64,000 nucleotides of DNA from Candidatus Latescibacterota bacterium (GCA_965222075.1 OZ244937.1:2784001-2848000), one strand, 5' to 3'; counted from the stretch's first letter, positions 32,785 to 52,810 are shown. Numbers and translations are program-made. Notes: generated by a model not told the origin, from the letters alone.

Positions 32785-34047
32785 ATGACAGAACGAGATC
32801 GGTGCACGCAGCGCAAAGATTTCCCCTTCTGCCTGTTCTGCGCCTGCCTGGTGCTCCTCTTGTTCTCCCCTTTCACATATGCCCAGACGCCCGGGACCGA
32901 CGCCATCTCCCAAGTTCGGCTCCACACGGTCCAACTTGGAGGTGTTCCCTATCTCTCGCTGGGGGGCCTGGCGGAGACCCTGGGGGGACGGCTTCGTTCC
33001 CACCGGCTCAAGCAAAAAGTCGAACTGAAACTGGGCGGACACACCGTTGTCCTCACCTGGCTCTCGGCCCTCGTTGTCATAGACGATGTGGCCTGCCGGA
33101 TGCCCCTGGAAACCCGGCTCTACAGCGGCGGCGTCCACGTACCGGCGGATGCCTTCCTGACGCTTCTCCAGCGAATCATCCCCAAAGGGCGCATCCGGGT
33201 GGTACGGGAATCCCCCACGGCTGGCGCCGCGCCCCCTCCCTCCCCCGGCCGCCAGACAGAATCCGACGGGCGTGTGCCGAAGGTCGATCCGAAACGCTGG
33301 ACCCTCGACACCGTAATCGTTGATCCCGGCCACGGCGGCAAAGACCCGGGCGCCACAGGTCCGGGTGGAACGGCAGAAAAAAAGATCGCCCTGCGGGTCG
33401 CCAAACGCCTCAAAACCCTCCTGGAAAAGCGGCTTCGCGTCCGTGCCGTCCTCACCCGGGATGACGACACCTTTGTCCCGCTCCGGAAACGGGCTCAAAT
33501 GGCCAGAAAAAGCGGGGGGAAACTCTTTCTCAGCCTCCACTGCAACGCCAGCGAAAACCGGCGTTCCCGGGGCATGGAAGTCTACTTCCTCTCCGAGGCC
33601 AAAACCCTCGAAGCCGCCGAAGTGGCCAGGCGGGAAAACGAGGCTATCGCGTTCGAGAAAAACGGCGCTGATTCAGACCTGCCTGCAGCGCAGAGCACTG
33701 CGCAGGCAGGTGGACTCGATCCAGGACTTGGCGGCATCACCTCCGGTCTCCTCTCCACGCAATTTTTGAAAGAAAGCCAGAATCTGGCCGCCTCGATACG
33801 CACCGAAATTGCTCAGACCCTGGTCGGCGTGGAAGACCGGGGGGTGAAACAGGCCAACTTCTATGTGATGCGATACACCATGGGCGATATGCCCTCTGCC
33901 CTGGTCGAAATGGGCTTTCTTTCCAACCCCACAGAGGAAAAACGGCTGCGCAGCACCGCCTTTCAGAAAGCGATGGCTGAAGCCATCTACCGCGGCCTCA
34001 AAACCTTTAAACGCCGCTATGAACAACAACTCTCAACAGCCAGGTAG
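32785..34047 (+). CDS. N-acetylmuramoyl-L-alanine amidase (Amidase_3) with an 11-codon hairpin insertion
   Basis: VDPGHGGKDPGA, EK, SLHCNA and VEMGFLSN motifs. Confidence 0.93.
   Translation: MTERDRCTQRKDFPFCLFCACLVLLLFSPFTYAQTPGTDAISQVRLHTVQLGGVPYLSLGGLAETLGGRLRSHRLKQKVELKLGGHTVVLTWLSALVVIDDVACRMPLETRLYSGGVHVPADAFLTLLQRIIPKGRIRVVRESPTAGAAPPPSPGRQTESDGRVPKVDPKRWTLDTVIVDPGHGGKDPGATGPGGTAEKKIALRVAKRLKTLLEKRLRVRAVLTRDDDTFVPLRKRAQMARKSGGKLFLSLHCNASENRRSRGMEVYFLSEAKTLEAAEVARRENEAIAFEKNGADSDLPAAQSTAQAGGLDPGLGGITSGLLSTQFLKESQNLAASIRTEIAQTLVGVEDRGVKQANFYVMRYTMGDMPSALVEMGFLSNPTEEKRLRSTAFQKAMAEAIYRGLKTFKRRYEQQLSTAR
33678..33710 (+). repeat. CCTG..CAGG hairpin micro-element, 33 bp, in frame in the amidase
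   Basis: cctgcctgcagcgcagagcactgcgcaggcagg, adding LPAAQSTAQAG. Confidence 0.9.
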
Positions 34048-34918
34048 ATCCTCTCCTTCCCGGATTGATCTCCATCCCCGCGATCCCGGCTACTACTACG
34101 ATCCCCATGTCGAAGCTGGACTACACGGAAAAATTAAGCTTTCACCTCGTGTTGAACACCACTGCAAATGTGGCGGGAAACCGCCTTATCAGATTTTCGA
34201 AAGTCCCGACGTCGAACCGGTCTGGTGCCCCTGCCGGTCCTATCAGATGAAGATCCGGCAGATCAATCGCTTCATTGTCGAATCGGGTATTCCGGCGCCG
34301 TTCCGATACAAATTCATAGACGACTTTCACGAAAGCTACGATGGGAAGCCGATCCCCGGGGCAGATCAACTTAAACAGCATCTCAGGACCTTGATAGAAA
34401 AAGCCCGTAGCCGGGAAGCATCATCCCAATCCAATGCTTCTACGGATTCGGTTCCGCCCCTCAGAGGATATTTTTTATGGAGTAAACCCGGCGCCGGTAA
34501 AACCTATTTCTCTTATATAGCCCTTAACGAACTGATCTTCTATTCCGTCCGACCCGGAAAGTTCATCAGCCTTTCCAAGGAATTCTTCCAGACGCTCAGA
34601 TTCGCTTTCGAAGAAAAAAGTCCTTTGCACGGTCAGTCGGAGACATTTATAAAAATCCTTAGCAACGCCCCCTTCCTGGTTATCGACGACTTCGGCGTAC
34701 AGCGCAACACGGAGTGGGAACTCGAGATGCTCTACAACCTGGTGGATACGCGCTACGCCAACCGGCGTTTTACGATTATTACAACCAACCAGAATATCGA
34801 AAGCATCAAGGATCTTGCAGACGGCAGGCTTTACTCCCGATTCCTGGAAATGTGCTACACCATCCACGTCCAGGCCCCGGACTACCGGGAACACTTTAAA
34901 AAAAAATACGAAATCTGA
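34019..34918 (+). CDS. DnaC/IstB-like AAA+ ATPase with N-terminal Cys cluster
   Basis: CKC..WCPC, Walker A PGAGKT, Walker B LVIDDFG, RY....TIITTN, RLYSR, DYR. Confidence 0.8.
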   Translation: MNNNSQQPGRSSPSRIDLHPRDPGYYYDPHVEAGLHGKIKLSPRVEHHCKCGGKPPYQIFESPDVEPVWCPCRSYQMKIRQINRFIVESGIPAPFRYKFIDDFHESYDGKPIPGADQLKQHLRTLIEKARSREASSQSNASTDSVPPLRGYFLWSKPGAGKTYFSYIALNELIFYSVRPGKFISLSKEFFQTLRFAFEEKSPLHGQSETFIKILSNAPFLVIDDFGVQRNTEWELEMLYNLVDTRYANRRFTIITTNQNIESIKDLADGRLYSRFLEMCYTIHVQAPDYREHFKKKYEI

Positions 34919-34998
34919 TAAACCATAGAAAGGGCAGAGGGCAAAGGTAAAACCCGTTCGTCTCGCTTTTTCTGCCCTTTGCCCTCTAAGGAGAACCC

Positions 34999-35715
34999 AT
35001 GACCCTGCGCCTCGACGGCCGAAGGCCGGATGAACTCCGCCCCACCAAAATCACCCGGGGCTTTATGAAACACGCCGAAGGATCGGCCCTCATCGAAATG
35101 GGGGAAACCAGGGTCATCTGCACGGCCAGCGTTGAAAACCGCGTCCCCCCCTTCCTTGTGGGCAAACGCACCGGATGGCTCACCGCCGAATACGCCATGC
35201 TCCCCCGCTCCACCCAAACGCGCAGCCAGCGGGAAACCCGGGGCACCAAAGGCCGCACCCAGGAGATTCAGCGCCTCATCGGCCGCACCCTCCGCGCCGT
35301 CGTCAACCTCGACAAACTGGGTGTACGTACCCTCTGGATCGACTGCGACGTCATCCAGGCCGATGGCGGCACCCGCACCGCCGCCATCTCCGGGGCCTAC
35401 GTCGCCGTCGCCGACGCGCTTGCCCATCTGTTCAAACGGAGACAGATCGATAAAAACCTGCTGCGTGACTCCGTGGCCGCCGTCAGCGTCGGCATCATCC
35501 ACGGCCAGCCCATGCTCGACCTCTGCTACACGGAGGATGTCTCTGCCGAAGTCGACATGAACATCGTCATGACCGGCTCCGGCAAATTCATCGAACTGCA
35601 GGGCACCGCCGAAGGCCAGCCCTTCAGCCGAACGCAGATGGACGCCATGGTCGTCCTGGCCAGAGCGGGCATCCAGCAGATCAGAGCGATTCAGGACGAT
35701 GTCCTTGAAAAATGA
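34999..35715 (+). CDS. rph: Ribonuclease PH
   Basis: [28 protein letters not shown] and [11 protein letters not shown] motifs. Confidence 0.97.
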
Positions 35716-36311
35716 ATCCCCTCATCATCGCCACCCGCAATCCCGGCAAACTCGAAGAGATCCGCCAGATCCTCGGCCCTGAAATCCAGCTCCGTTCCCT
35801 TGCAGACTTCGCAGACCTCCCCGGCATCGTCGAAGACGGGGACACCTTTGAGGCCAACGCGGTCAAAAAGGCCCGCGCCGTCGCTCGCCATACCGGTTGT
35901 CCTGCCCTGGCCGATGATTCCGGCCTGGAGGTGGATGCGCTCGGCGGCGCCCCCGGCGTCCACTCTGCCCGTTTTGCGGGCGAAAAAGCGACCGACGCAC
36001 AGAACAACGCCAAACTCCTCCACCTGCTCGGTGAAACCCCAAAAGAAAAACGGACCGCACGCTTCCGGTGTGTCATTGTAGTCACAACACCAGACGGCGC
36101 GGTCCGCACTGCCCAGGGCAAGTGTGAAGGACGAATCCTGAAAAGGCCCAGAGGCCGTGGGGGATTCGGTTACGATCCCCTCTTTCTGGTACCGGCCCTC
36201 AAGCTTACTTTTGCTGAACTTTCTCCTGGTGAAAAAAACCGGATCAGCCACCGGGGCCGGGCCCTCAAGGCCGCCAGGCCCCTTATTCTGGACGCCCTGG
36301 CCCTCGACTAA
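35712..36311 (+). CDS. rdgB: dITP/XTP pyrophosphatase (RdgB/HAM1)
   Basis: [27 protein letters not shown] and [10 protein letters not shown] motifs. Confidence 0.96.
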
Positions 36312-36375
36312 TGGTGTGGTCTAAGAAGTCCTCGCCCACAGGTAACGCCAGGGGAACTCGACAGCAAGCGGCCCC

Positions 36376-36445
36376 CATTACTCCCCCCTTGAGGGGGAGT
36401 CGCAGAAGCCGAGCCGACAGGCGACGGCTGATGCGGTGGGGGGAT
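36376..36445. repeat. ~70-bp palindromic repeat, left copy
   Basis: ACTCCCCCCTTGAGGGGGAGT hairpin plus tail; reverse complement of 52646-52760. Confidence 0.85.
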
Positions 36446-36802
36446 CGCAGATATGCCAGCGTAAACAAAAACGTGAAATATAGCGTAGGGACAGGGATTG
36501 CCTTTGCCCCTGCGAGGTCACCCCCAAAGGGAGTCTCCAGCAACCTCGATACCCGTTCCCTACCTGAACATGAACAAATTCTACCTTGATAACAAAACAC
36601 CTTTTTTGTATATTTCCTTATGTCAACTATCAGGCAAACCTGCATGTCGGTAGCCTGCCGAATACAATAGCCAACGATCAATTGAAGGTATGCTGGAAGG
36701 ACAAGTCTTAAAATCTGCTCAACAATGAGGGACCAGAGGTCCAGTTAAGCGCCGTCCATATATTGGTGTTCCCCTCGGACCTGTTGAGTTAAGGAAGACG
36801 AC

Positions 36803-36988
36803 ATGCCAGCTTCTCAAGAATTTATGGACTATCACGCGGAAAGTCTTGCAGAACTCAAAGGGCTATCCCAACAGATGGACAAGCGTATTGAGTTTATGGA
36901 ACGTCTGTACATCAGTATAGATCGAAAATTGTGGGCAATTATCTTGCTTGTTATTGGTGCTATTGTTATTCCCCTCATTCGAAGTTAA
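36803..36988 (+). CDS. Small coiled-coil protein with C-terminal TM helix
   Basis: RBS AAGGAAG; heptad pattern followed by LWAIILLVIGAIVIPLI. Confidence 0.6.
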   Translation: MPASQEFMDYHAESLAELKGLSQQMDKRIEFMERLYISIDRKLWAIILLVIGAIVIPLIRS

Positions 36989-37115
36989 AGGGGATAGGTA
37001 GCCTTCGCAAGCTCAAGAGATACTCTTCCCGACAGGCCGGAGCGCATGGCTTTGGTTATTCCCCCCAAAAAGAAAGTTCGAAAATTCCCCATAAAAGACG
37101 TAATGATGTAAAGCT

Positions 37116-37310
37116 TCAAGGGGTAAGCGTCCGGGCAACTCGAAAACCCCCATCGTTGTACCGGTAATCGGAACTGTACCTGATGCGACTCGCCGAGCGA
37201 AGGAGCCCCGGATAGCTGCACCACGAACCACCACGCAACACGCGCCTCGAGCACTCCCCGGACTCCCACGCAGACCCGTCAGCAGGTGCCCCCTCGTAAT
37301 TGCCGTTCCA
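37116..37310 (-). pseudogene. Orphan C-terminal FGE-sulfatase/C-type-lectin-fold fragment (DGR variable-region-like)
   Basis: [34 protein letters not shown], paralogous to the C-terminus of 42569-45019. Confidence 0.8.
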
Positions 37311-37354
37311 CACGATTGCGTCCAGGTCGGCACAGCCTCCCTCCGAAGCACCCT

Positions 37355-37380
37355 CACGCCCACAAGGGGCGCCCCTACCA
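37355..37380 (-). repeat. GTAG-family REP-like palindrome
   Basis: GTAGGGGCGCCCCTTGTGGGCGTG on the minus strand. Confidence 0.65.
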
Positions 37381-37391
37381 GGATGACAATT

Positions 37392-37660
37392 CTGGCCAGC
37401 TGACGCCCGAAATCGTCCCTCCCGTCCCAATTCAGCGTGTAATACCCCGCCTCCAGGGTTGCATCGACCAGGGTCCGAACCTCCTGCCCCAGCAGGTTGT
37501 AAACCCCCAGATGGACCTGCCCCGACTCTGGCAACTGATATCCGATGGTCGTGGAAGGGTTGAACGGATTGGGCATATTCTGATCCAGACCGAAGCTGTC
37601 CGGCAGCGGCTTCAGGTTGCCAACCTCCAGGTGGTGGACCGGAAATTGCTGCCCATCGGG
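37392..37660 (-). pseudogene. Truncated FlgD-Ig / secretion C-terminal sorting domain fragment
   Basis: [51 protein letters not shown]; no upstream gene body. Confidence 0.8.
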
Positions 37661-37702
37661 TGAAAAAGCTTCAGGTACCGAGCCCGTACCAACGAAAATT
37701 GC

Positions 37703-37739
37703 TTGACTGGCTAAGTATTTTGTAACATATTTTGTAACA
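37703..37739 (+). promoter_or_regulatory. Putative sigma-70 promoter with tandem 12-bp operator-like repeat
   Basis: TTGACT-17 nt-CATATT; TATTTTGTAACA x2 at 37716-37739 overlapping the -10. Confidence 0.45.
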
Positions 37740-37803
37740 TGTAAGAGGATGAAGTCCGTATCTTGTAATTGCGACGGGATGTTGTTGACTACGGAGGTCC
37801 GCC

Positions 37804-38319
37804 ATGGTCAGTGACGCTACTCGAAAGATGGCCTGGAATGAGTATCTGGATGTAGAGAGGGCGGCCAGATACTACGATGAACTTTCTCGTTATTATCGTA
37901 GGCGACACAATGCTGTCATGATAGGACTTGCGCTGTGCGCAATAGCTGGGGCTGGTCGCTTTATGTTTTCGGACTACGTAAGCAGGCTGGCTGAAGTCAT
38001 GGTAGATTTGGGCATTATAGCAGTTAGCGTGCTTGGCTTACTTGGGAATCATGCAAGAAAATCCGCCAGTCTTCATGCGGTTAGCGTGATGTGTTTTGAT
38101 TTGCAAGACAAACACAAAGCGTTGTGGTCGAAGATAGAAAACAATGCGATAGACAATAACGAAGCCTACGATATACTGATGGACCTTATTGAATCCGGCG
38201 AGAGGGCAACAAGTATTCCTGGTTGGGCAGATATTTCAGTAAATGACAAATTGAACAGCAAGAGCCAAAGAGAAGCAGATGATTCGCTGGTAGATCAATA
38301 TTCAATCAGGGAGGCATGA
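37804..38319 (+). CDS. Two-TM membrane protein, SLATT-like
   Basis: RBS GGAGG; helix-TM-TM-helix layout; lower GC than core genes. Confidence 0.55.
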   Translation: MVSDATRKMAWNEYLDVERAARYYDELSRYYRRRHNAVMIGLALCAIAGAGRFMFSDYVSRLAEVMVDLGIIAVSVLGLLGNHARKSASLHAVSVMCFDLQDKHKALWSKIENNAIDNNEAYDILMDLIESGERATSIPGWADISVNDKLNSKSQREADDSLVDQYSIREA

Positions 38320-38463
38320 TGGGGAAAGAGGCAGAGAAGAAAGAGCCATAAGGCCACCGCGTAATCCCGAAAGCCCCAGGCCAGCACCGCCCCCAAGGCC
38401 AGAAACAATTCCACAGTCACCACCCAGGCCACAATCACCGCCCGGACCACGAGAAAATAGATG

Positions 38464-38499
38464 ACAAAGAAGCCGAGGCGAAAACCTCGGCTTCTTTGT
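38464..38499. terminator. Perfect hairpin between convergent genes, probable bidirectional terminator
   Basis: ACAAAGAAGCCGAGG-CGAAAA-CCTCGGCTTCTTTGT. Confidence 0.7.
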
Positions 38500-38638
38500 G
38501 CCTGTCGCATTCTCTATTTCAGGACGCCAGGTGGTGGATGCGGATGGGATTGGGTATGTGGTATCGGTATTCCATCGCATCGAATTGTCCCCAAACCCGG
38601 TTCGTTGCACGCGCCGACCACGTCACCCAACGTAGGGG

Positions 38639-38671
38639 CCTGCCTGCAGCGCAGACCGCTGCGCAGGCAGG
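38639..38671 (+). repeat. CCTG..CAGG hairpin micro-element, 33 bp, inside a GTAG REP
   Basis: cctgcctgcagcgcagaccgctgcgcaggcagg. Confidence 0.9.
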
Positions 38672-38789
38672 CAACCCTTGTGGTTGCCCTGATTTCTGTA
38701 ACGGTGACCGTCGCTTCTGATCCGGTCACAGGCGATGTGGCACTCCCGGGCGTAACTACAGCGCCTTCAGTGATCGGGCTTCCCTGCTC

Positions 38790-39500: not shown

Positions 39501-39644
39501 AGCTCGGTAACCCCAAGACTCATGAGATCGAAATGAACTGGCCTCGTTCACCCCCCTTGCTCTTGACCATTTCCTCGCTTTCACGATGAACTGGCGTCCA
39601 TTCACGGCTTCATTTTGCGAGCAAAAATGAGGGCGTATTTTCAA

Positions 39645-42474: not shown

Positions 42475-42519
42475 ATCGACCCCACCACCAAAATCCATCC
42501 CCCTCCCTCCCCCACAAAA

Positions 42520-42549
42520 CCTGCCTGCCGCGCTCGCGGCGCAGGCAGG
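42520..42549 (+). repeat. CCTG..CAGG hairpin micro-element, 30 bp, intergenic
   Basis: cctgcctgccgcgctcgcggcgcaggcagg. Confidence 0.9.
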
Positions 42550-42568
42550 GAGGTAAAGAGGTAAAGAT

Positions 42569-45019
42569 TCAAGGCTTAAGCGTCCGGGCAACTCGAAAAC
42601 CGTTGCCGATGCCGTAGAGCCGACGGTCTGCGGATTCCCTGTCGCGCCTAGCGGCGCGGAACGCCCCGTTGCCCGACGATCCGCCGCGCAAAACTCGATA
42701 TGAGCAGTCACCGCTCTCCCAGGCAGAACCGTCCGCTGGTGCTCCACGATAACTGCGGTTCCAGCAGTCCTGAACCCACTCCGACACGTTCCCGTGCATG
42801 TCGTGAAGACCCCAAGCGTTGGGAGCGAACGAACCCACCGGAAGAAAACGCCTAAGGTCTGGCCACCGGATGTCGCAACCATAGCAATTGGCCCGGTTGC
42901 TGCCGACCTCATCCCCCCAGCTATACCTCGTCGTCGTCCCCGCACGCGCGGCATACTCCCACTCCGCCTCGCTCGGCAAACGATACCGGTCCTCTCCCTC
43001 CATCTCGTTCAGCTTCCCTACAAACGACTGTGCATCATTCCACGAAACATACTTCACGGGGCAATCCCCGCACCCCTTGAAGTGTGACGGAGAAAGGCTA
43101 CCCATCACCGCCTCCCACAGCCCCTGCGTCACCTCATACTTACCCAGGTAGAACCCCTGGCTGATCGTCACCTCATGCACCGGCCCCTCGATGTCGCGAT
43201 GACCCTCCTCCGACGGAGGCGATCCCATCTGAAACGTTCCCGACGGTATCCGCACCATCTCCAGCTCTGCGCCCCCCGGCATTATAAAGATGATAGTAGG
43301 TGGTAGAGGACGTAATACTTCCACCTGCACCTGCCTGTCCAACCCGTTTGGCCGGTCGAACACAGTCAGAGTCGTTATCTGCCCGGAGTCCCCAACCGCG
43401 ATCGCCCCTGCCACCGACGCATCAACCGGATCCGGCTCGATCGCGATGATATCGCCGTCGCTCGACTCCCAGCGATACTGCGGGGATTTGAACTCCGGGA
43501 ACGTCACCGCCTGCAGGCGCACCGTATCGCCCTCGCCGATCCACAATTTCTGGATCCCGTCCGGGTTGGTAGGCAACGGTTTGACGAACACTTCCGGGCG
43601 CACCGAATAGAAATCCCTGCTATTGAAACTCCCTTCGATCGTGTAATTGACCTCATTCCCCTTCACACTCAACGCCAGCGAATGCTCCCCGTCCCCACGC
43701 TTGGGGCTGAGGTATCTCAGCCAGTAGAAACTGTCCGCGAACGAGACGATCCTTTTCTGAATCTCGATAAACCGGTCAGCCAGTTGATCAGCCAGTTTGC
43801 TCACGTCCGAGATCTGGAAGAATCCGGCGTTGCCCAGTTCCTTCAGGACTTCCGGGTCAATCTCGTTCCCCAGGCCGATGGTGTAGACATTCTTGTTTTC
43901 CCGCGCCGTAAGCGCCTCCGACAGCGTATAAGACCCCTGCGTGTCGCTCCCGTCGGTCAGGATGACCAGGAACCCCTGCTGGACTTCGGTTGTCGTAAAG
44001 ATGTCCTGCCACCGCCGGGTTCCGGTGATAATACTACCGTACAGGTTGGTGGTGGGAAAACCCAGACGGATCTCCCGAATCGCTTTGGTCAGGGCCGCCA
44101 CGTCGTCGGTGAAATCCTGCAAGAGCTCCGGCTTTTCAGAGAATTCGTACAGGGCGATCTCCTGGTTCTCGGTCATGTTTTGCACCAGAATGATCGCCGC
44201 CTGTTTAATCTGCTCCAGGTGTTCCTTTACGCTCGTGCTGGTGTCCAGCATCAGAACGGTCTTCACCCTGAAAGTATGCGGAATGGCCTCCCGCTTTTGG
44301 ACGCGCATTGCCGACTCGGTAGGGGACACGACCTGATCGTCCTCGCGCACTTCAAAGTGTTCGGTGGTCAGTGACGTCACTCCCCAGTTATCGGAGTCGA
44401 TTACCTGGAAGAGAATATTGACAAAGCTGGGCTCCTCGGTCGTGATCCGGTGTCTGACCAGCCTGAACCGAAATTCCACCACCCTCACGGTGATCGTCTC
44501 CGAAGCCCTCCCGCCCCGGCTGTCTCTTACCGTGAACGTGATGCGGTGGGTCTCGCCCTCGCCGCCTGTGGGGGTCCAGCGGAAGGTGGACCCCGAAAGC
44601 GACGATCCCTCGGGGTGGCCGCTCACACGGTAGGTCAGATCACCCCCATCCGGATCGGAAGCGACCAACTCTATGATCAGGGTACCGCCTTTTGGTACGC
44701 CCTGGTCGCCGATCCGCTCCAATATCGGCGCCTCGTTGGGAACGGCGCTTTGACCAAAAAATCCGGCGAACGCCACAAAATCCCCGAAACCCACCTGTCC
44801 GTCGCCATCCAGATCGTACTTTGCCTCGTACCTGCCATCGCCCTGGCTGGTCCCGAATTTGCCTGCAAACGACACAAAATCGCTGAAACCAACCTTGCCA
44901 TCGCCGTCAAAATCCGCATCCGCTGCGGTTTGGGCATACACAAAAGCAAGCCCTGCGAAAACAATCCCCAGCCCCACCAACAATCCACCAACAGACCTTC
45001 TCGTGAATTTCATTGCCAT
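42569..45019 (-). CDS. Exported multidomain protein: dockerin-like EF-hand repeats, Ig/cadherin-like, vWA, Ig-like and FGE-sulfatase (CLec-fold) domains
   Basis: Signal peptide; DFDGDGKVGFSDF x2; vWA MIDAS DTSTS and TDG; F.MGS, YEVT, RLPSEAEWEYAAR, DMHGNVSEW, GFRVAR. Confidence 0.9.
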   Translation of the reverse strand: MAMKFTRRSVGGLLVGLGIVFAGLAFVYAQTAADADFDGDGKVGFSDFVSFAGKFGTSQGDGRYEAKYDLDGDGQVGFGDFVAFAGFFGQSAVPNEAPILERIGDQGVPKGGTLIIELVASDPDGGDLTYRVSGHPEGSSLSGSTFRWTPTGGEGETHRITFTVRDSRGGRASETITVRVVEFRFRLVRHRITTEEPSFVNILFQVIDSDNWGVTSLTTEHFEVREDDQVVSPTESAMRVQKREAIPHTFRVKTVLMLDTSTSVKEHLEQIKQAAIILVQNMTENQEIALYEFSEKPELLQDFTDDVAALTKAIREIRLGFPTTNLYGSIITGTRRWQDIFTTTEVQQGFLVILTDGSDTQGSYTLSEALTARENKNVYTIGLGNEIDPEVLKELGNAGFFQISDVSKLADQLADRFIEIQKRIVSFADSFYWLRYLSPKRGDGEHSLALSVKGNEVNYTIEGSFNSRDFYSVRPEVFVKPLPTNPDGIQKLWIGEGDTVRLQAVTFPEFKSPQYRWESSDGDIIAIEPDPVDASVAGAIAVGDSGQITTLTVFDRPNGLDRQVQVEVLRPLPPTIIFIMPGGAELEMVRIPSGTFQMGSPPSEEGHRDIEGPVHEVTISQGFYLGKYEVTQGLWEAVMGSLSPSHFKGCGDCPVKYVSWNDAQSFVGKLNEMEGEDRYRLPSEAEWEYAARAGTTTRYSWGDEVGSNRANCYGCDIRWPDLRRFLPVGSFAPNAWGLHDMHGNVSEWVQDCWNRSYRGAPADGSAWESGDCSYRVLRGGSSGNGAFRAARRDRESADRRLYGIGNGFRVARTLKP

Positions 45020-45057
45020 ATCCTCCCAACTCCTTGATCCGGACCCGATCTTTCATA

Positions 45058-45118
45058 CCTGCCTGCAACAGGCAGGCAGCAACCACCTGCCTGCCGAGCA
45101 GATCTCGGCGCAGGCAGG
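45058..45118 (+). repeat. Two CCTG..CAGG elements: a 19-bp mini copy (45058-45076) and a 33-bp copy (45086-45118)
   Basis: cctgcctgcaacaggcagg; cctgcctgccgagcagatctcggcgcaggcagg. Confidence 0.85.
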
Positions 45119-45123
45119 CAGGG

Positions 45124-46653
45124 TCAGAATGCTGATCCCTCCACCAGATCGTATGCCTTGATCCGGCGACGGAGGGTATTGCGCGAAATGCCAAGCAACC
45201 CGGCAGCCCGGCTCTGATTTCCATCGCACCTGCGGATGGCCTCCCCCACCGCCTGCCGTTCAAGCGCGGCCAGATTCAGGCTCTCCACCCCGGCCACATC
45301 CAGCGCAACGGGCAGACCGCCCGCCTCGCAAGGGACAGGCCTGCCTGCTGGCGCGCCAGCGCAGGCAGGCGCCGTCTGCCTGCGGCTGTCCGGCAATCCA
45401 CCCGCCTGCCTGCCGGGCAGATCTCGGCGCAGGCAGGCGCCAACAGTCAGATCCTGCAGGTGATCTGCCCTCACCTGACCGTTCCCGCACAGAATCGCAG
45501 CCCGTTCAATCGTATTGTTCAACTCTCGAACATTGCCAGGAAAAGGGTAGGCCTCCAGCAGCGCCACCGCCTCCGGGGCAAACCCCTGGATCGACTTGCG
45601 CATCTCCTTCGCATACCGGCTTAAAAAGTACTGCGCCAGCGGGAGAATATCCTCCAAACGCTCCCGCAGCAGCGGAACCCGGATGGTGAACACATTGAGC
45701 CGGTAGAACAGATCCTCCCGAAAAACACCCTCACGGACCATCCCGGACAGATCCCGGTTCGTGGCCGAGACCACCCGCACATCCACCGCAACCTCCCTGC
45801 ACCCGCCCACCCGACGGATACACTTCTCCTCCAGGGTGCGCAACAGCTTCCTCTGCATCCCCAGGTCCATATCGCCGATCTCGTCCAAAAACAGCGTGCC
45901 CCCGTCCGCCTGCTCAAAGTGGCCCTTCCGTGCCCGCCGGGCATCGGTGAACGCACCCTGTTCGTGGCCGTAGAACTCGCTTTCAAACAGCGCCTCAGGG
46001 ACGGCCGAGCAATTCACAGGCACAAACGGTCCGCCTGCCCGGGCGCTTTCGGTGTGAATGGCCCGCGCCACCAGCTCCTTGCCCGTACCCGTCTCGCCGC
46101 AGACGAGCACCGTGGTATCCACAGACTGGCAGACCTGCCGGATCTGCTCCCGCACCGCGCAAATGGCCCCACTCTCCCCCACAATCGCCGCCAGCCCAAA
46201 GCGCTGCCTGGACTCCGTGTTGATGCGCTCCAGACGCGCCTGCATCCTGTTCTTCTCCCGATGAAGCCCCTGGTAACGCATGGTCCGCTGCAAAGAAGCG
46301 TTCAGCTCCTCCACCTTGAACGGCTTCGTAAAAAAATCAAAAGCCCCATCCCGCATCGCCCGAAAGGCATGCTCGACCTCACTGAAGGCCGTAATCACAA
46401 TCACCTCCGTATCAGGAGACAGGCGCTTGACCTCCCTTAAGACCTCGAACCCATCCATCCCCGGCATCTTCACATCCGTGATCACGATGTCAACAGCCTC
46501 CCTCCGAAGGACCTTCACGCCCACGAACCCGTCTGCGGCCTCGTAGACCATGTGCCCCCGCGCCTGCAGAAACATCCCCACGGAAGACCGGATCTCCGGG
46601 TCGTCATCAATCACCAGAATGGACATCGGGATCTTTTTGTCGGACCTGGGCAT
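45124..46653 (-). CDS. Sigma-54-dependent response regulator (NtrC family)
   Basis: REC domain (ILVIDDD, DVKMP, TKP), GETGTGKE, GAFTDA, FPGNVREL, Fis HTH; RBS GGAGG before 46653. Confidence 0.92.
   Translation of the reverse strand: MPRSDKKIPMSILVIDDDPEIRSSVGMFLQARGHMVYEAADGFVGVKVLRREAVDIVITDVKMPGMDGFEVLREVKRLSPDTEVIVITAFSEVEHAFRAMRDGAFDFFTKPFKVEELNASLQRTMRYQGLHREKNRMQARLERINTESRQRFGLAAIVGESGAICAVREQIRQVCQSVDTTVLVCGETGTGKELVARAIHTESARAGGPFVPVNCSAVPEALFESEFYGHEQGAFTDARRARKGHFEQADGGTLFLDEIGDMDLGMQRKLLRTLEEKCIRRVGGCREVAVDVRVVSATNRDLSGMVREGVFREDLFYRLNVFTIRVPLLRERLEDILPLAQYFLSRYAKEMRKSIQGFAPEAVALLEAYPFPGNVRELNNTIERAAILCGNGQVRADHLQDLTVGACLRRDLPGRQAGGLPDSRRQTAPACAGAPAGRPVPCEAGGLPVALDVAGVESLNLAALERQAVGEAIRRCDGNQSRAAGLLGISRNTLRRRIKAYDLVEGSAF
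45340..45437 (+). repeat. Two CCTG..CAGG elements (45340-45369, 30 bp; 45405-45437, 33 bp) in frame in the NtrC linker
   Basis: cctgcctgctggcgcgccagcgcaggcagg; cctgcctgccgggcagatctcggcgcaggcagg. Confidence 0.9.
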
Positions 46654-46791
46654 CGTTATCGGCCTCCCCTGAGGTGATGAAAATTCTTCCCTGAACCCTT
46701 TTGTCGGTGCTGCAAAGACCGTCACGGGCGCGAGGGACGTGTCGGTACCCTCCCTGAATCGCCCTTCCAGGCCAGCAGAGCGAGTCCGAGA

Positions 46792-47234
46792 GTGGACATG
46801 GCCTTGTGGCAACGTCGTCCCAAGGACGTGATCCATCACTCCGACCAGGGATCGCAGTATACCTCCATCGCCTTTGGTCTGCGCTGCAAAAGGGCCGGTG
46901 TCCGTCCCTCCACAGGATCGGTCGGAGACTGCTTCGACAACGCGATGTGCGAGAGTTTCTTCGCTACACTCGAATGCGAACTGCTCGACCGCCACTGCTT
47001 CCGCATTTACCAGGCCTGCCTGCAGCGCAGGGCACTGCGCAGGCAGGAAGCGCAACGGGCCCTCTTCGCGTATATCGACCTGTCTGCGTGCTACGCACAG
47101 GCAGGGGGGTGGTATAATCCACATCGCAGACATTCAGCTCTGGGATACGACTCACCCACAACCTACGAAGAAAAACACCAGGCATGGGCTTGACACCCAA
47201 GCCTAAAACCGTCCACGAAACCGAGGTAACTCCA
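46792..47234 (+). mobile_element. IS3-family remnant: transposase OrfB C-terminus and right end
   Basis: IHHSDQGSQYTS, GDCFDNAMCESFFATLECE, WYNPHRRHSALGY; ends ..GTCCACGAAACCGAGGTAACTCCA. Confidence 0.88.
47015..47105 (+). repeat. Two CCTG..CAGG elements (47015-47047, 33 bp; 47079-47105, 27 bp) in frame in IS3 OrfB
   Basis: cctgcctgcagcgcagggcactgcgcaggcagg; cctgtctgcgtgctacgcacaggcagg. Confidence 0.92.
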
Positions 47235-47407
47235 GTTAAAGCACTCTATTTCAATCAGCATTACCTGGATCGAATTATTCGCATCTTCGGTTGGGCGCGG
47301 TCCCATAGTGTGACAAAAAAGATAGCATAACATCCTCAATAATTTCTTATGGTTAGAGGAAAGTTTGGGAAATTTACTTCTAACCAACAAGAATCAGAAA
47401 GGACGTT

Positions 47408-48925
47408 ATGCTGGATCATATCATAGATCAAGTGACAGAAAAAGTCAACCAAAAGTTGCCTAAGATGGTGAGCGACCTGCAAGAGAGTCTTTCGTTTGCC
47501 GACTTGGAGCATGGCTTGATCGGTTTGCTCCAGGAGGTGGTGGGCATCGTCGTGAGTCCGGTGTTGAATCAGGTTTTTCAGGATGAGGCCTTGCTGTTTG
47601 GGCTGCGTCAGGCAGCCGGTAGTATGGGCTACAGATATAAGGAACATCGGCCTTTGACCGTACGGGTTTTGGAAGGTGTAGAAGTTGAAGTCTCTTCGCC
47701 CTATTTCGTTAAGCGGGGTCGCAAACGGGGCAGGAAGAAGCGGGGTCCCAATGGTCGAGGGTGTCATCTGTTATTGGATGTGCTTGGGTTTATCGGTCGG
47801 TGCAGTCCGGAGTTTGTAGATGAAGCTGTGAAGTTGGCCTTGTTATGCCCCTCCTTTGAGGTGGCCACTCAGGTGTTGGATGCCCGTCAGATAAAGCTGG
47901 ACAAAAAAACCCTTCGAAGATTGTGCAAAGCTTTAGGCGAATTGGGTCTGGAGCAGAGAGCCACGATTGCTCTAAAAGATGAGCTCTCCTTTTCAGGTCG
48001 CACGGTGTATATCGGCATCGATGGGGGTCGGATGCGGATGCGTGAGCCCAAGCGGGGTCGAAAGCCAAAGGGAAAGAAATATCCCCGATATGATACACCT
48101 TGGAGAGAACCCAAGTTGTTTACCATCTACATGTTGGACGAAAAAGGTCGCGTCGAAAAATCGTGGACGCCTATCCACGATGCGACTCGGGGCAATGCCG
48201 ATTTGATGTTTGAGATGCTGGAAGCTACCCTTTTGGAACTGCCCCTGCAACAGGCCGATCGGGTCGTGTTTATCGCCGATGGGGCAGAATGGATCTGGCC
48301 GAGGGTAGAGCGTCTGATCTGGAGGTTGGGGGTGCCTCCAAGCAAGGCGATCCAGATCCTCGACTATTACCATAATAGTGAAACCCTCTTTGAACTGGTG
48401 CAACTCCAACCCAAGCTTAAAGAAAAGGCACAACGTGCCCTGTATGAGACGTGGAAGACCTGGATGTGGAATGGGGAGCTTTTAAAACTCCGACCTGCCT
48501 GTGCGTGCTGTCTCACGCACGCAGACAGGAAAGAAGTGCTCCAGCAGCTTCGCGGGGAAAAACGAAAACAGGCCATCACATCCCTGAACCATTTCGACCG
48601 TCATGCGCATCGAATGCGCTATCCTACCTTCAAAGAACAGGGCCTTCCCACCTGTCTGCGTGCCACGCACAGGCAGGTCGGAAGTGGACACGTCGAAAGC
48701 GCCATCCGTCGTGTCATCAACCTTCGGATCAAAGCACCAGGCACGTTCTGGAAAAAAGACATGGGCGAATACTTCCTGTTTCTGCGCTCACAGTTGATCT
48801 GTGGAAGATGGCCTATCTTCTTCCAGAATGTCACAGGACGATACCGAACGGGTGAGTTTGCCCAACATCTCTTTCCCTCTTCTCCGAAAATGGGTTTGCT
48901 CAAGACAGGGACAGATGATCACTAA
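47408..48925 (+). CDS. DDE transposase (ISKra4/ISLre2-like) carrying two in-frame hairpin insertions
   Basis: IDGG, ADGAEWIW, LDYYH and RMRY....G.P[insert]GSG.VES motifs. Confidence 0.88.
   Translation: MLDHIIDQVTEKVNQKLPKMVSDLQESLSFADLEHGLIGLLQEVVGIVVSPVLNQVFQDEALLFGLRQAAGSMGYRYKEHRPLTVRVLEGVEVEVSSPYFVKRGRKRGRKKRGPNGRGCHLLLDVLGFIGRCSPEFVDEAVKLALLCPSFEVATQVLDARQIKLDKKTLRRLCKALGELGLEQRATIALKDELSFSGRTVYIGIDGGRMRMREPKRGRKPKGKKYPRYDTPWREPKLFTIYMLDEKGRVEKSWTPIHDATRGNADLMFEMLEATLLELPLQQADRVVFIADGAEWIWPRVERLIWRLGVPPSKAIQILDYYHNSETLFELVQLQPKLKEKAQRALYETWKTWMWNGELLKLRPACACCLTHADRKEVLQQLRGEKRKQAITSLNHFDRHAHRMRYPTFKEQGLPTCLRATHRQVGSGHVESAIRRVINLRIKAPGTFWKKDMGEYFLFLRSQLICGRWPIFFQNVTGRYRTGEFAQHLFPSSPKMGLLKTGTDDH
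48494..48529 (-). repeat. CCTG..CAGG element, 36 bp, inverted orientation, in frame in the transposase
   Basis: cctgcctgtgcgtgctgtctcacgcacgcagacagg, adding PACACCLTHADR. Confidence 0.88.
48651..48677 (+). repeat. CCTG..CAGG element, 27 bp, in frame within the PIGSG motif
   Basis: cctgtctgcgtgccacgcacaggcagg. Confidence 0.92.
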
Positions 48926-49691
48926 CGCAATCAACCGCTTATTCAACAACTTAACACGACTTTCTATATGTCATACTTTAGGACTGCACCCTCTTCGGTT
49001 TGGACAATATGGTGAACAGTTTTTCTGCGTATGAGTTCAAATAAATCAAGGGGTTACAAATGGACGCCCTTTTTTTTTAAACTTAGCCCATCCCCTGAGT
49101 TTAAAAAAACGGCTGATTTAAAAAAGGCTTGTATTTTAACAACTTATCATTTTTAAGCCGTTAAGAACTTACCAAAAAGTATTCACAGTATTGATATCGT
49201 TGCCACAATGACAATAACGAAGATCACGAAAATAAAAACCAACATCAACATGTTGAATCTCCTTTCACGTCAACAGGGGGGTAATGTCTTAAATTTCCTG
49301 CAAAAAGAACCGGCGCGAACTATCTTCCTGAGGTCATTATCAAACTCAACGCCCCGAGTGGGCACAATGCCATCGGCATGGACAAACGGGATGGGCGGGT
49401 TGGACTTCACATGTAGCCGATCATCACCGCGGTAACAGGCGGAACGTCTTCTTCGCTCATTTCCTCCTCCTTTCAGTTGATGTTCGAGAGTCCGCCGTGG
49501 ACGGTGCTGCGTGGTCCGTTCATCGAACAAGAGCGCCCGCGAAGCGTTCGTGGGCTCGGGAGATTCCCCAGCAGACAGCAGGTCGGGTCACGCTCATGAC
49601 CGCCACGGCGGGCTCGATGCTCCATTTTGTCCGAACCTCGTCATGCGTTCCCAGAATGTTGACCCCCGGCACCTCCTGGTGAAGAGACTGA

Positions 49692-50456
49692 TCAGCGAGG
49701 GCTTAACCGGATCGTCCAGATGACGCCGGGCGGAGCATTCATCCTCCCCAACATCGAACGATTATTTGTGCTATATTCTTCAAGTTCCTCTAAATCCTCA
49801 AGAAGCTCCAATAAATAGTATGTTCCTACTGCCACCCCCGCGAGAGTCCAAAACCAGCCATACCAATTGGTTTCTGATTTTTGCACTACAACTACCTTTG
49901 TCGGCAGTTCTTCCTCCTTCTCTTTCTCCTTCTCTTTCTCCTTCTCTTTCTCCTTTCCAGCTTTCTCATCTATCATGAAGTCCATGTTATCCTTCGCGTA
50001 AAGACTGATCAACGTGGGCTTCAAAGGATCACCGAAGTGGAACTGGTCGATGTATCGGATGTCCCGCTTCGTGCCTTCCTGCTGGGCTAGAAGAGGCAGG
50101 TCTCCCAGTGTCATGCCAGGCCGTGGCGCCTCGTTGCCGAAACTGGCAAAACGCGCTACGGCGATATGGCTGGACAAGCGGAGAGACCGCCACGGACTTT
50201 GAAGTAGCACGGCATAAGGCTGTTGAAGGGCGCTGGCAAAGAATGGCGTCGGTTTCAACGGCAGGTCACTCAAATGGTTGTCACGGTAGTAAATCCGCCA
50301 GTCTGTGTAGTTGAGATCCTGTTGCACCAAGTTGTCGGCGTCCATATACCGTGTGATCAACGAATTCCCGTTTGTTTTGGATGTTGCCGCGCTGGTCACC
50401 AATAGCACGGACCAGAGCACGACAACAGCATCTGTCAATATCATTAGCCTTCTCAT
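49692..50456 (-). CDS. Hypothetical exported/membrane protein with (KE)n tract
   Basis: RBS AAGGAGG; N-terminal hydrophobic segment; KEKEKEKEKEKEKEEE; C-terminal TM. Confidence 0.65.
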   Translation of the reverse strand: MRRLMILTDAVVVLWSVLLVTSAATSKTNGNSLITRYMDADNLVQQDLNYTDWRIYYRDNHLSDLPLKPTPFFASALQQPYAVLLQSPWRSLRLSSHIAVARFASFGNEAPRPGMTLGDLPLLAQQEGTKRDIRYIDQFHFGDPLKPTLISLYAKDNMDFMIDEKAGKEKEKEKEKEKEKEEELPTKVVVVQKSETNWYGWFWTLAGVAVGTYYLLELLEDLEELEEYSTNNRSMLGRMNAPPGVIWTIRLSPR

Positions 50457-50469
50457 CTTTCCTCCTTAT

Positions 50470-50520
50470 TGAAGTGGACCCCAAAGTCAAGACCAATTTG
50501 AGGCGGATTTAAGGTGGATA
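50470..50520 (-). mobile_element. Isolated IS3-family terminal inverted repeat (remnant)
   Basis: TGAAGTGGACCCCAAAGTCAAGAC resembles IS3/IS150-type ends (TG..GGACCCC); no transposase attached. Confidence 0.45.
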
Positions 50521-50858
50521 GCATTTTTCTTCTCGATAGGGTTCTCCTTTCCGGGATTTTACGTGAAGCCGTAAATGCCCCTCTAAACTCCTCGAAGTGA
50601 AACGCGCCCCCCCAAAAAAACCCGCGCCGGGTCTGGACCGCTTACGCTGACTTATCCGCCTTGCGCCGTGTTTTGATATTCACGGCAGCCATTACTGTCG
50701 AACCACGTCCATGCCAACTGCCGCTCAGAATTCGTCAACCAAGTCACACCCGCCCGCAGATCTTGCACCAGGCCTTTAAACACCTTGACCACGTAACGGG
50801 TCGAATGACATCGCAGCTGACGCATGGTTTCCTTCCTTCCAATTACGCAGGGAGCACA

Positions 50859-51917
50859 TTATTTCAAATTCATACGCCAGATATTGTATTTCCCTTCTGC
50901 CGTCGCTCGCTGTGACACAAAATACAGGGAACGACCATCGTGTGACCATCGAGGGCATATATCGTGGCCAGGATGAAAAGTCATCTGCGTCAGATCAGTT
51001 CCATCTATGTTAACGAAAAAAATGTCCAAATTGCGTGGAGTATTTCCTCCATAACTGGCTGCAACAACGGCCAGTTTCTTACCATCTGGCGAAACCGAAC
51101 ACTCGGAGTAACCTCGATCTTGAGAAGAAAGGATGAGGAATTCCTGTCCCTTTTCAAGATCAACCAACCAGATTTCGGCATATCCGGTTTCTCTATTGCC
51201 TCGGATAGTCGCAACTTTTTTGCCATCAGGCGTGAACGATAACCCTCTTCCCTCGACATACTGAGTCAGGGCATTATTGGTTAAATCGTACGTCCATAAA
51301 TAGGCCCTTTCTCCCTGGTATTCGTAAAATAGAATTTTCGAATTGTCAGGAGAGAAAACCGGATAAAATGTCTTCGTTTTGCTCCTTGTTATCTGACGTA
51401 TCGCAAAGCCGCTTTCTGAGGCTATTGTATAAATATTCGTATTACCATCCCGGTTGTCTGCAAATGCTAAATTTTGCCCATCAGGCGAAAATGAAACATC
51501 CCAGATATCTTCGCTGAATGTCCTTTGCAGCACCGCCCTCCCGCCCTTTAAATTCTTGATGAACACATTGTCTTTTTTGTTTTTACGGCCTACGTAGGCT
51601 ATTTTCTCGTTCGTAATACTGAAAATCTGCCGCGGGGTGTAACTGAGGCCTCTGCCTTGTCGTGTTTTTTTTATCGGCGGCGTAATAACCGTCTCTTCAT
51701 CCTCGGTCAACCTCGTAAAGCTGATGCCGCCTTCTTCCGGAACGCTGGGAAGACTGTAATCTATCCGAGGTGGTGGAGGTGGTGGAGGTGGAGGTGGTGG
51801 AGTCGTTGCGCACCCACACATTAATAGCAATAAAGTAAGGTGTGACTTTAAATAGACAAGAGGAGGAACCTTCCGTATAATTAGAACTTTCCTGAACAAC
51901 GAAGACGTTGAAGACAT
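50859..51917 (-). CDS. TolB-like PD40 beta-propeller protein, probable lipoprotein, with poly-Pro linker
   Basis: LLLLMCGC lipobox-like motif, poly-Pro run, repeated FSPDG/WS.DG motifs. Confidence 0.85.
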   Translation of the reverse strand: MSSTSSLFRKVLIIRKVPPLVYLKSHLTLLLLMCGCATTPPPPPPPPPPPRIDYSLPSVPEEGGISFTRLTEDEETVITPPIKKTRQGRGLSYTPRQIFSITNEKIAYVGRKNKKDNVFIKNLKGGRAVLQRTFSEDIWDVSFSPDGQNLAFADNRDGNTNIYTIASESGFAIRQITRSKTKTFYPVFSPDNSKILFYEYQGERAYLWTYDLTNNALTQYVEGRGLSFTPDGKKVATIRGNRETGYAEIWLVDLEKGQEFLILSSQDRGYSECSVSPDGKKLAVVAASYGGNTPRNLDIFFVNIDGTDLTQMTFHPGHDICPRWSHDGRSLYFVSQRATAEGKYNIWRMNLK

Positions 51918-52207
51918 GATGGACCTCCCGTGTTATTGGAAGCTGCCGTGGCCCTGGAGGACGCCTAATTCAACTACGGGTCGTCTGTTCATCCAGTCCT
52001 GTGATTTGACTCATCTTGCGGATGCTCCCGTGACCCATGCGCTAAAAATCAGCTGATCCCAGGTGATTTCCGATGTACAAAATAAAACCCACCCGCAATG
52101 CGAGTGGGCATTTTCCGATCATGCACAGCGAGTCCGGAGATGCTGACAGCTTCACCGGACAGACTGTTAACTCTTTTGTTAGTTCCCTAACACTCTCCCT
52201 CAAAATT

Positions 52208-52225
52208 GGGGGGGGGGGGGGGGGG
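52208..52225 (+). repeat. Poly-G tract (18 nt)
   Basis: Directly visible. Confidence 0.85.
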
Positions 52226-52645
52226 TAAGTAAGTTTCTGTTTTTATTACACTTATATGGTCTATATTTGCATAAATCGCCGGTAGTCTGAATGACACCGA
52301 GGAGCACTGGACCCATTTTGACCGCCATGTTAAACCAACCCTGAATGTGTCGCAGTCCAGATTGCAACCGACACCAAAAATATCAGAATGAGGGCATCGC
52401 GCTTCATTTACCCGGCGGGTATTTTCATCATGCCGAATGCAAGCTCAGCCCCTTAAACGGGAACATTATAACACAACTACTACCGTTGTCAAGCAAAAAT
52501 TTGGGAGTTTGGCCCGGATCAGGGCCAGGTTGTCAGGAAGGCAGGATAGGGGTAGGGATACTGGGGGTTGGATACCGGCTTGCAGGGGGAGTGAAGTGTT
52601 TGAGAACTGTTTTGGTGTGCTGGAGAGGGTGTACAAGACGTTGAC

Positions 52646-52760
52646 ATCCCCCCCACCGCATCAGCCGTCGCCTGCCCTTCGACAATCCTTCGACAGGCTC
52701 AGGACAAGGCTCAGGGGACCGGCTCGGCTTCTGCGACTCCCCCTCAAGGGGGGAGTAATG
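52646..52760. repeat. ~70-bp palindromic repeat, right copy, with nested CCTTCGACA..GCTCAGG insertions
   Basis: Reverse complement of 36376-36445 interrupted at about 52675-52719. Confidence 0.85.
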
Positions 52761-52810
52761 AGGGGGGTGGCGCAGGCAGGTCTGGCTGACATGGACGCCC
52801 TGGCCCTCGA

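Follow-up and report, generated by a model that had tools for sequence, protein, structure and literature searches.

A probable family of very small, REP-like mobile DNA hairpins filtered by selection in the genes of a Latescibacterota bacterium

Introduction

The window analysed here is a stretch of 64,000 nucleotides from Candidatus Latescibacterota bacterium (bases 2784001-2848000 of one 5,360,005-base contig, OZ244937.1 of assembly GCA_965222075.1; 59.3% G+C), in which short hairpins of the form CCTGYCT..AGGCAGG lie inside genes and between them. Repeats resembling the repetitive extragenic palindromes (REPs) are abundant, yet their mobility has rarely been caught, and in the current view of the classical REPs only doublets (REPINs) move, by means of a REP-associated tyrosine transposase (RAYT). 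An earlier note, made from the sequence of the window, had taken the hairpins to be minimal non-autonomous mobile elements, and filled and empty sites in insertion sequence (IS) copies, paralogues, orthologues and phage genes now bear this out. With a probability of about 0.8, we consider the family to be REP-like, very small, non-autonomous mobile DNA hairpins that are filtered by selection in genes. The main value of the family lies in unusually clean evidence for mobility and selection in a very small element.

Results

Hairpins in the window and their hosts

The word CCTGYCTGC was counted 22 times in the window where 1.59 occurrences were expected, the highest count in a shuffle being 4, and the hairpin pattern CCTGYCT..AGGCAGG gave 19 strand matches against 0.04 expected. 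These 19 matches were the ten full copies and the 19-nt mini copy, which together with a half copy were found where the earlier note had placed them (Table 1). All ten full copies, including those between genes, had a length that is a multiple of three (3n), as the note had also reported. The pattern tool stretched the 45086 copy from 33 to 37 nt because GCAGG follows it.

Table 1. Hairpin copies, host genes and a neighbouring gene in the window, with positions counted from its first base
Feature	Position	Strand	Context
N-acetylmuramoyl-L-alanine amidase, host	32785..34047	+	Amidase_3 at residues 177-406, E 2e-52
33-nt hairpin	33678..33710	+	inside the Amidase_3 gene; starts at codon base 3 (phase 2); adds LPAAQSTAQAG
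33-nt hairpin	38639..38671	+	intergenic
30-nt hairpin	42520..42549	+	intergenic; 20 nt past the stop of the VWA/FGE-sulfatase gene
VWA/FGE-sulfatase gene	42569..45019	-
19-nt mini copy	45058..45076		stem of 8 bp and loop of 3 nt; intergenic, 39 nt upstream of where the 42569-45019 gene starts
33-nt hairpin	45086..45118	+	intergenic, directly past the stop of the sigma-54 activator gene
Response regulator/sigma-54 activator/Fis helix-turn-helix (HTH), host	45124..46650	-	start uncertain; open reading frame continues to 47133 over the IS3 remnant
30-nt hairpin	45340..45369	+	linker of the sigma-54 activator, between AAA+ lid and Fis HTH
33-nt hairpin	45405..45437	+	same linker as the 45340 copy
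IS3-family transposase C-terminal remnant, host	46792..47193	+	rve, rve_3
33-nt hairpin	47015..47047	+	in frame in the IS3-type integrase (rve) remnant
27-nt hairpin, CCTGTCT variant	47079..47105	+	in frame in the same rve remnant as 47015
UPF0236-family transposase, host	47408..48925	+
36-nt hairpin	48494..48529	-	opposite orientation; within the UPF0236 (ISLre2-like) transposase gene, in frame
27-nt hairpin	48651..48677	+	in frame in the same UPF0236 gene as 48494
Half copy	52770..52780		3' arm GCGCAGGCAGG alone; intergenic; match at 52772-52780 on the minus strand

The predicted amidase peptide across the junction of the 33678 hairpin would contain ..SDLPAAQSTAQAGGL.., and an AlphaFold model predicted the insert as coil (predicted local distance difference test, pLDDT, about 26-32) flanked by helices 274-292 and 325-345. 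This model, built from a 7-row alignment, reached a mean pLDDT of 58.4 and a predicted template modelling score (pTM) of 0.46 and is too weak to count as evidence. The sigma-54 host matched Response_reg (residues 172-281 of the 669-aa open reading frame, ORF), Sigma54_activat, AAA_lid_14 and HTH_8 in Pfam. The ORF that runs over the 38639 copy (38461-39171) had no Pfam match and a hexamer score of -113.7.

Lone CCTGCCTGC arms with no 3' arm in range were seen on the plus strand at 54702-54710 and 58308-58316, and it is possible that these are decayed half copies. Two stretches of the window (36000-39600 and 48000-52000) had a G+C content of 49-55% against about 60% and few confidently scored genes; they contain the UPF0236 transposase gene and ORFs that have no Pfam match, and it is possible that they form an acquired island.

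Copy number and fold in the genome

A strict search of the 5.36 Mb genome (G000) found 240 non-nested copies of 19-39 nt, and the reversed pattern, used as a control, found none there; CCTG..CAGG was the most frequent short hairpin of the genome. Allowing one mismatch per arm gave 308 hits with 26 in the reversed control and shortened real copies, so that the strict 240 were kept. Copies with like flanks were merged into 198 flank-distinct sites, since copies that share flanks are not independent. There were 115 distinct sequences, 89 of them 3n in length, with main classes of 27, 30, 33 and 36 nt. No other copy lay within 100 nt of 198 of the 240 copies; nested and partial copies were common.

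The copies follow the form 5'-CCTG(C/T)CTGC .. inner stem/loop .. (G/A)C AGGCAGG-3', and their arms, CCTGYCTGC and GCAGGCAGG, are terminal inverted repeats. The outer 7-bp stem was invariant except for the C/T position, where a G-T pair is retained, and a bulge of two nucleotides, GC or AC, lies on the 3' side of the hairpin. Across 40 distinct 33-mers, 92% of the inner-stem cells were paired; sliding the 3' partner by one or two positions left 24-55% paired. True pair switches between CG, AT, GC and TA were seen at three pairs (positions 10 with 22, 11 with 21 and 12 with 20). One fold with a compensating inner stem had been described in the earlier note; genome-wide, both this covariation and lengths that are non-random modulo three were indeed present. 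At the gathering score Rfam gave no family in the window; the two hits obtained with E up to 1 (42400-48800) were at chance level.

Seven of the eight 19-mers were intergenic. Their use as operator sites was rejected, as they shared neither a position nor a neighbour. A separate repeat family of 250-300 bp occurs in the genome (for example at 1905700-1906050) and not in the window; its core palindrome GGCCTTTTTCTTG..CAAGAAAAAGGCC was found 44 times. In this repeat, 11-12 copies of the commonest 33-mer occupied one fixed site, GAGCGG/CGCCC (the slash marks the insertion point here and below), and other copies of the repeat were empty there. Three identical 27-mers were also seen about 150-165 nt apart just 3' of a gene (1139014-1139359), where the hairpin appears to sit within a tandemly repeated unit.

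Filled and empty sites

The clearest comparison came from a second copy of the UPF0236 transposase at genome position 3463606-3465400. The two copies were 99.5% identical (1682 of 1691 aligned bases shared), and the second otherwise differed by just four extra hairpins of 27, 27, 25 and 25 nt, placed at GA/TG, GA/TT, CA/TC and GA/TG without any duplicated base. The two 25-mers disrupt its reading frame. The transposase gene was also found exactly free of the 36-mer at 48494 and the 27-mer at 48651 in public sequencing runs, namely in a contig of run X3 (depth 158) and in a contig of the RNA run X18 (record 13). Four such runs were used as contigs (X1, X3, X18 and X22); the kind of X1 and X3 is unrecorded, and the RNA runs are labelled sponge metagenome. 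A contig of X1 joins 47014 to 47106 through just the 31 nt that lie between both hairpins of the IS3 remnant, contigs in X1 and X3 were free of the 45086 copy, and a divergent RNA-run contig (X22, record 16) was free of the 45405 copy.

Paralogues in the same genome gave a similar result. Positions 45000-47250 of the window are an inverted segmental duplicate, at 94% identity, of genome positions 497885-500520; the duplicated segment carries the sigma-54 response regulator, the IS3 remnant and several hairpins. Both duplicates share the 33-mer 45405 (genome 500150) and the 19-mer 45058 (genome 500424), and the window duplicate alone has a 54-nt stretch around 45340 and the 33-mer 45086. Since the 45405 hairpin is present in both paralogues, it predates the duplication.

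Orthologues of the host genes were empty as well. The insert in PurL, a 33-mer plus a 21-mer that adds 18 aa, was missing in 13 of 13 aligned orthologues, including that of a same-genus genome at 95% identity, and was the sole internal indel of at least 5 columns in the 14-row alignment, in which the other gaps were C-terminal; its DNA junctions are G/C and A/C (genome 1160163-1160229). In UvrA, an insert of 12 aa (a 36-mer) and one of 20 aa (nested 27 and 33 nt) were missing in 8 of 8 aligned orthologues, the alignment leaving out one locus (L075). The amidase insert was missing in 7 of 7.

Phage genes, too, were found filled and empty. In an IMG/VR phage contig (L107:9074-11608, minus strand) an 845-codon gene encodes a fused prohead protease (Peptidase_S78) and major capsid protein (Phage_capsid_4), and among its relatives (L148-L152 and L162) the hairpin lay in frame in the N-terminal part of some and was absent in others. 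The DNA alignment placed a 33-mer at a G/C site in three related contigs and left this site empty in three others, one of which has a 21-mer at an A/C site that is empty in all others. In one relative the reading frame of this gene holds a stop. No duplicated bases were present at any junction that was compared. Single hairpins are thus the moving unit, and insertion is precise, without target duplication and in either orientation, as the earlier note had proposed; the UPF0236, PurL, sigma-54 paralogue and phage junctions all agree on this. The insertions are recent, and housekeeping and phage genes are hit just as intergenic DNA, decaying IS copies and other repeats are.

Target site and orientation

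The flanks carry no target duplication, as the earlier note had said, but they are not featureless. A purine/pyrimidine (R/Y) junction was found at 151 of the 198 flank-distinct sites (G/C 58, A/T 52, G/T 23 and A/C 18) against 23.6% of the genome's dinucleotides, and Y/R was found once. C occupied position -4 in 105 of the 198 sites and G position +4 in 101, with A at -2 and T at +2 nearly absent. The target is therefore a weak palindrome, C-N-B-R/Y-V-N-G, which is similar to the element's own ends (CCTG/CAGG). The composition of the flanks revealed no GTAG or CGTC tag, and the empty sites set the ends at CCTG..CAGG. Orientation showed no bias with respect to the strand of the host gene (23 versus 24) or to the replichore (Fisher p 0.24).

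Length, phase and reading of copies in genes

Genes were called with our own hexamer scorer trained on long ORFs, which gave 3504 genes over 80% of the genome; the calls are crude. Gene cores held 51 of the 198 sites, of which 48 were 3n; 22 lay near gene edges (21 being 3n) and 125 were intergenic (91 being 3n). The 3n share differed between gene cores and intergenic DNA (Fisher p 0.001), and two of the three genic exceptions were poor hairpins that resemble chance matches. Intergenic copies were also biased, with a 3n share of 73% (binomial against one third, p 2e-19). Gene cores hold only about a quarter of the sites although 80% of the genome is coding, which suggests that most insertions into genes were lost.

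The earlier note had reported different reading phases and both orientations. Both orientations and several phases were present, but the phases were uneven: the 48 genic 3n copies fell into phases 0, 1 and 2 as 12, 6 and 30. Phase 2 reads (x)LPA..QAG, in both orientations because the element is palindromic, whereas twelve copies in phase 0 read PAC..GR and six in phase 1 read CL..RQ. The R/Y sites available in genes predict phases 0, 1 and 2 at 0.17, 0.49 and 0.33, from which the observed phases depart (chi-square p 1.3e-6). The commonest variant, the one inspected for this, had no stop in any frame. A length filter for 3n together with a phase filter that depends on the peptide points to translation as an insert of 7-13 residues, not to removal or bypass at the RNA level. 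On these length and phase statistics, genic inserts are most likely translated as a short in-frame peptide, in line with the tolerance for such a peptide that the note had put forward.

Of the 28 host genes that qualified, 20 were scanned against Pfam, which assigned a family to 18. Among the hosts are PurL, UvrA, a UvrD-like helicase, AcrB, xanthine dehydrogenase (molybdopterin dehydrogenase), hydantoinase A, two thiamine pyrophosphate (TPP) enzymes, a histidine kinase ATPase domain and a type I restriction R subunit. Intergenic copies were in no excess near gene 3' ends (13 of 114 facing distances were at most 30 nt; median 551), and on our gene calls their split among types of intergenic DNA matched the DNA available.

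Distribution among genomes and phages

At least 60 copies were found in nine of 168 genomes of the phylum (G000, G003, G070, G009, G071, G072, G002, G018 and G021), eight belonging to the family of the window's genome and one to a sister family. Relatives beside them had 0-6 copies, and the same-genus genome had 23. Identical 27- and 33-mers occurred in genera with PurL proteins of only about 71% identity. This patchiness and the identical 27- and 33-mers would fit a putative trans-acting factor that is gained and lost, perhaps with phage transfer. When viral contigs were scanned, 68 of them held a total of 70 matches; 42 of the 70 had an inner stem of at least 4 bp, 39 of these 42 being 3n, and 6 of the 70 were identical to a variant of G000. 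In one genome of the same class (G117) the reversed control pattern gave 55 matches, which indicates a different abundant palindromic repeat family there.

Search for the mobilising enzyme

The earlier note had suggested a mover of the HUH or RAYT kind and a nuclease or transposase gene flanked by dense copies; the searches described here supported neither. G000 has one intact IS200-like TnpA, whose own hairpins are unrelated to the CCTG family, and one broken copy. It also has one RAYT-like HUH gene (3242104-3242871), bracketed by two direct copies of about 145 nt with GTAG-type hairpins (region 3241500-3242990) that were found nowhere else in the genome. This locus is a REPtron-like unit that has no dispersed REP family, and no copy of the CCTG family lay within about 29 kb of the gene. 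In G009, G002, G018, G003 and G001, eight of ten loci of RAYT-like genes had no family copy within about 2 kb. Across 31 genomes the content of Y1_Tnp did not correlate with copy number: G004 had 32 Y1_Tnp hits and 2 elements, and G009 had 212 elements and weak partial Y1_Tnp hits only. In the same 31-genome scan no IS110 was found in G000.

Pfam searches of 105 stop-to-stop frames from six dense hairpin clusters revealed no candidate enzyme. The frames matched IS remnants (DDE_Tnp_1, rve and DDE_5) and ordinary genes, and the DNA of the clusters was gene-poor. No IS that shares the element's ends was found in the dense clusters or beside the Y1 genes, a search that was not a full IS census.

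Discussion

Our results are best accommodated by a mobile hairpin that probably depends on a protein supplied in trans. Such a protein, the likeliest agent, would recognise the bulged hairpin and move it, and selection would then screen the insertions, so that copies breaking the frame would disappear from working genes. Stop-free 3n copies would be read through and could persist as loops of 7-13 residues rich in Ala, Gly, Arg, Pro and Gln, with the best survival in the phase that reads (x)LPA..QAG, which is free of cysteine. In a genome that is about 80% coding, 3n lineages would leave more surviving copies, and intergenic copies would in this way come to be mostly 3n as well.

What moves the hairpins was considered from two other sides. 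An HUH single-strand transposase that works on the extruded bulged hairpin, be it a RAYT or an IS200/IS605 TnpA, is a possible but doubtful mover. Classical REPs and REPINs are thought to be moved by RAYT, and the ends of IS608-type elements are imperfect hairpins with a bulge, so that the exact insertion lacking target duplication, the imperfect hairpin with its conserved 2-nt bulge and its G-T wobble on one strand, and the presence of both a RAYT-like gene and an intact TnpA in the genome would all suit it. However, the hairpins at the RAYT-like gene are of the GTAG and not the CCTG type, those of TnpA are unrelated, most RAYT-like loci of the relatives (8 of 10) are free of family copies, and the Y1_Tnp counts of G004 and G009 do not follow the element counts; the target, moreover, is a symmetric R/Y rather than a one-sided fixed word, and no replichore bias was seen. 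Spread could also occur without any dedicated enzyme, through replication or repair by the host, for instance by template switching or microhomology-mediated copying between CCNR/YNGG-like sites and existing copies. The flanks do look like the ends of the element (C at -4, R at -1, Y at +1 and G at +4), nested and partial copies are common, and no enzyme was found; we still regard this as unlikely, because the patchy distribution (9 of 168 genomes with at least 60 copies) better fits a factor that is gained and lost than a universal host process, and because identical 27- and 33-mers across genera point to a constraint on the whole sequence.

What the hairpins do in and around genes raises two further possibilities. 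They might be kept for a service to the host, as terminators, mRNA stabilisers or modifiers of protein loops. The copies at 42520 and 45086 lie just past stop codons, and classical REPs have such roles according to the text of PMC3733652, but no excess at 3' ends was found, the intergenic split follows the available DNA, the same-genus genome lacks the inserts of PurL, UvrA and the amidase, which are lineage-specific, and copies accumulate in decayed IS remnants; a host function is accordingly quite improbable. Least credible of all is that the inserts escape translation, being cut from the mRNA or bypassed by the ribosome as in byps or T4 gene 60, a route that the earlier note had kept open. 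Stable GC-rich hairpins within coding sequence and the X18 contig from an RNA run (record 13), free of the transposase 36-mer and 27-mer, would be in keeping with it. The element-less form, however, is also present in X3 (depth 158) and X1, whose kind is unrecorded, and the genome's own IS copies differ in hairpin content. A skipped insert, furthermore, needs neither a 3n length (48 of 51 in gene cores) nor a particular phase and could hold stops, of which the commonest variant has none.

Several points weigh against a selfish hairpin that is moved in trans and read through in genes. The mobilising gene was not found among Y1_Tnp, IS110, the RAYT loci and the dense clusters, and movement in trans is what we infer. 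No peptide and no raw RNA read was seen across a filled site, nor was an RNA contig across a filled element, the RNA runs being contigs only, which derived from element-free copies and covered 13 of 30 bins. The gene calls are crude, and some copies counted as intergenic may lie in genes, or the other way round. The amidase model is too weak to place the 33678 insert as a surface loop. Lineage selection as the source of the intergenic 3n bias is likewise something we infer, and a few founder subfamilies could contribute, though 89 of the 115 distinct sequences are 3n.

With the mobile, selection-filtered hairpin as the starting point, a fuller picture can be offered tentatively. The hairpin of 21-36 nt may be the whole element and among the smallest DNA units shown to be mobile by empty sites. 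It may be moved by an unrecognised structure-specific enzyme other than RAYT that cuts symmetric CCNR/YNGG-like sites and joins without duplication; its lineage may have been shaped to be frame-neutral (3n, stop-free, with a benign peptide in the favoured phase) and may colonise coding DNA, carried by phages between sponge-associated bacteria. The single-hairpin filled and empty sites (21-36 nt) show where the element ends and which target the reaction uses, and offer a clean substrate for an enzyme hunt, and the length and phase statistics speak of selection on a selfish element via the peptide it adds. Such hairpins offer a natural and simple way for conserved enzymes (PurL, UvrA and AcrB) to gain loop insertions. 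For annotation, the inserts account for unusual additional loops of this clade's proteins, and copies that are not 3n flag decaying genes.

Among known systems, elements of the IS200/IS605 group insert 3' of a fixed word of 4-5 nt, require a pair of unlike end hairpins and favour the lagging-strand template. The present family resembles them in the lack of target duplication and in having a bulged imperfect hairpin as its structure, and differs in its symmetric R/Y target, in that one hairpin is the whole element, in the absence of strand bias and in the unrelated hairpins of TnpA. [quoted passage not shown] The byps of Magnusiomyces mitochondria and the insert of T4 gene 60 are short, GC-rich coding inserts that leave the protein functional and need no conservation of frame. 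Our hairpins are equally short, GC-rich and inside coding sequence, but they are 3n, selected for phase and, in the commonest variant inspected, stop-free.

In REPIN-RAYT systems the mobile unit is an inverted REP doublet and singlets are regarded as immobile remnants (Bertels and Rainey 2011, as presented in the text of PMC8049555), and the RAYT, present in single copy, has its REPs on either side (PMC8049555). The CCTG..CAGG hairpins likewise are short, hairpin-forming, non-autonomous repeats that persist as populations within genomes. In contrast to the systems described there, 198 of 240 copies are unpartnered, single hairpins are inserted and no RAYT is linked. Rickettsia palindromic elements (RPEs), as described in the text of PMC10969869 and PMC3733652, are palindromic repeats in frame in many unrelated, apparently functional genes, a trait that our family shares; the RPE-1-type elements are about 100-150 bp long with a conserved encoded peptide. 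Here, by contrast, the unit is 19-39 nt, the peptide varies with phase and orientation, and the host genome is a free-standing one of 5.4 Mb rather than a reduced intracellular one.

The closest relatives are REPs as treated by Di Nocera, De Gregorio and Rocco (2013, BMC Genomics, PMC3733652), who sorted them into GTAG- and CGTC-tagged super-families. Their main text describes, for several species, REPs of 20-40 bp that are contained entirely within genes, frequent hosts being uvrA, uvrB, UvrD-type and polymerase genes, and CGTC REPs that have no dedicated transposase. Like these, our hairpins are GC-rich imperfect palindromes of 20-40 bp with many dispersed copies, some in frame in genes, their hosts include uvrA and UvrD-type genes, and, as for the CGTC REPs, no dedicated transposase is associated. 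Unlike them, as that text presents them, they carry neither an unpaired GTAG or CGTC tag nor a tail, they are mostly single and not dimers, and they belong to a different phylum. Classical REPs are largely extragenic and favour the DNA just after ORFs or between convergent genes; our hairpins show no excess downstream of ORFs, though 125 of 198 sites are intergenic on our gene calls. A 3n bias, a phase bias and exact empty-site junctions are not mentioned in the main text of PMC3733652. The literature covered, supplementary tables aside, gave no description of a CCTG..CAGG hairpin family, and in the paper on Latescibacterota from sponges (PMC12993501) CRISPR repeats are the sole repeats mentioned. 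The novelty that the earlier note had supposed therefore holds for the sequence family and not for the in-frame intragenic position, since intragenic REPs in frame were already known from the text of PMC3733652. In-frame intragenic repeats are thus already published, and what is new is an untagged single hairpin, not linked to a RAYT, with a 3n bias and its own mode of insertion.

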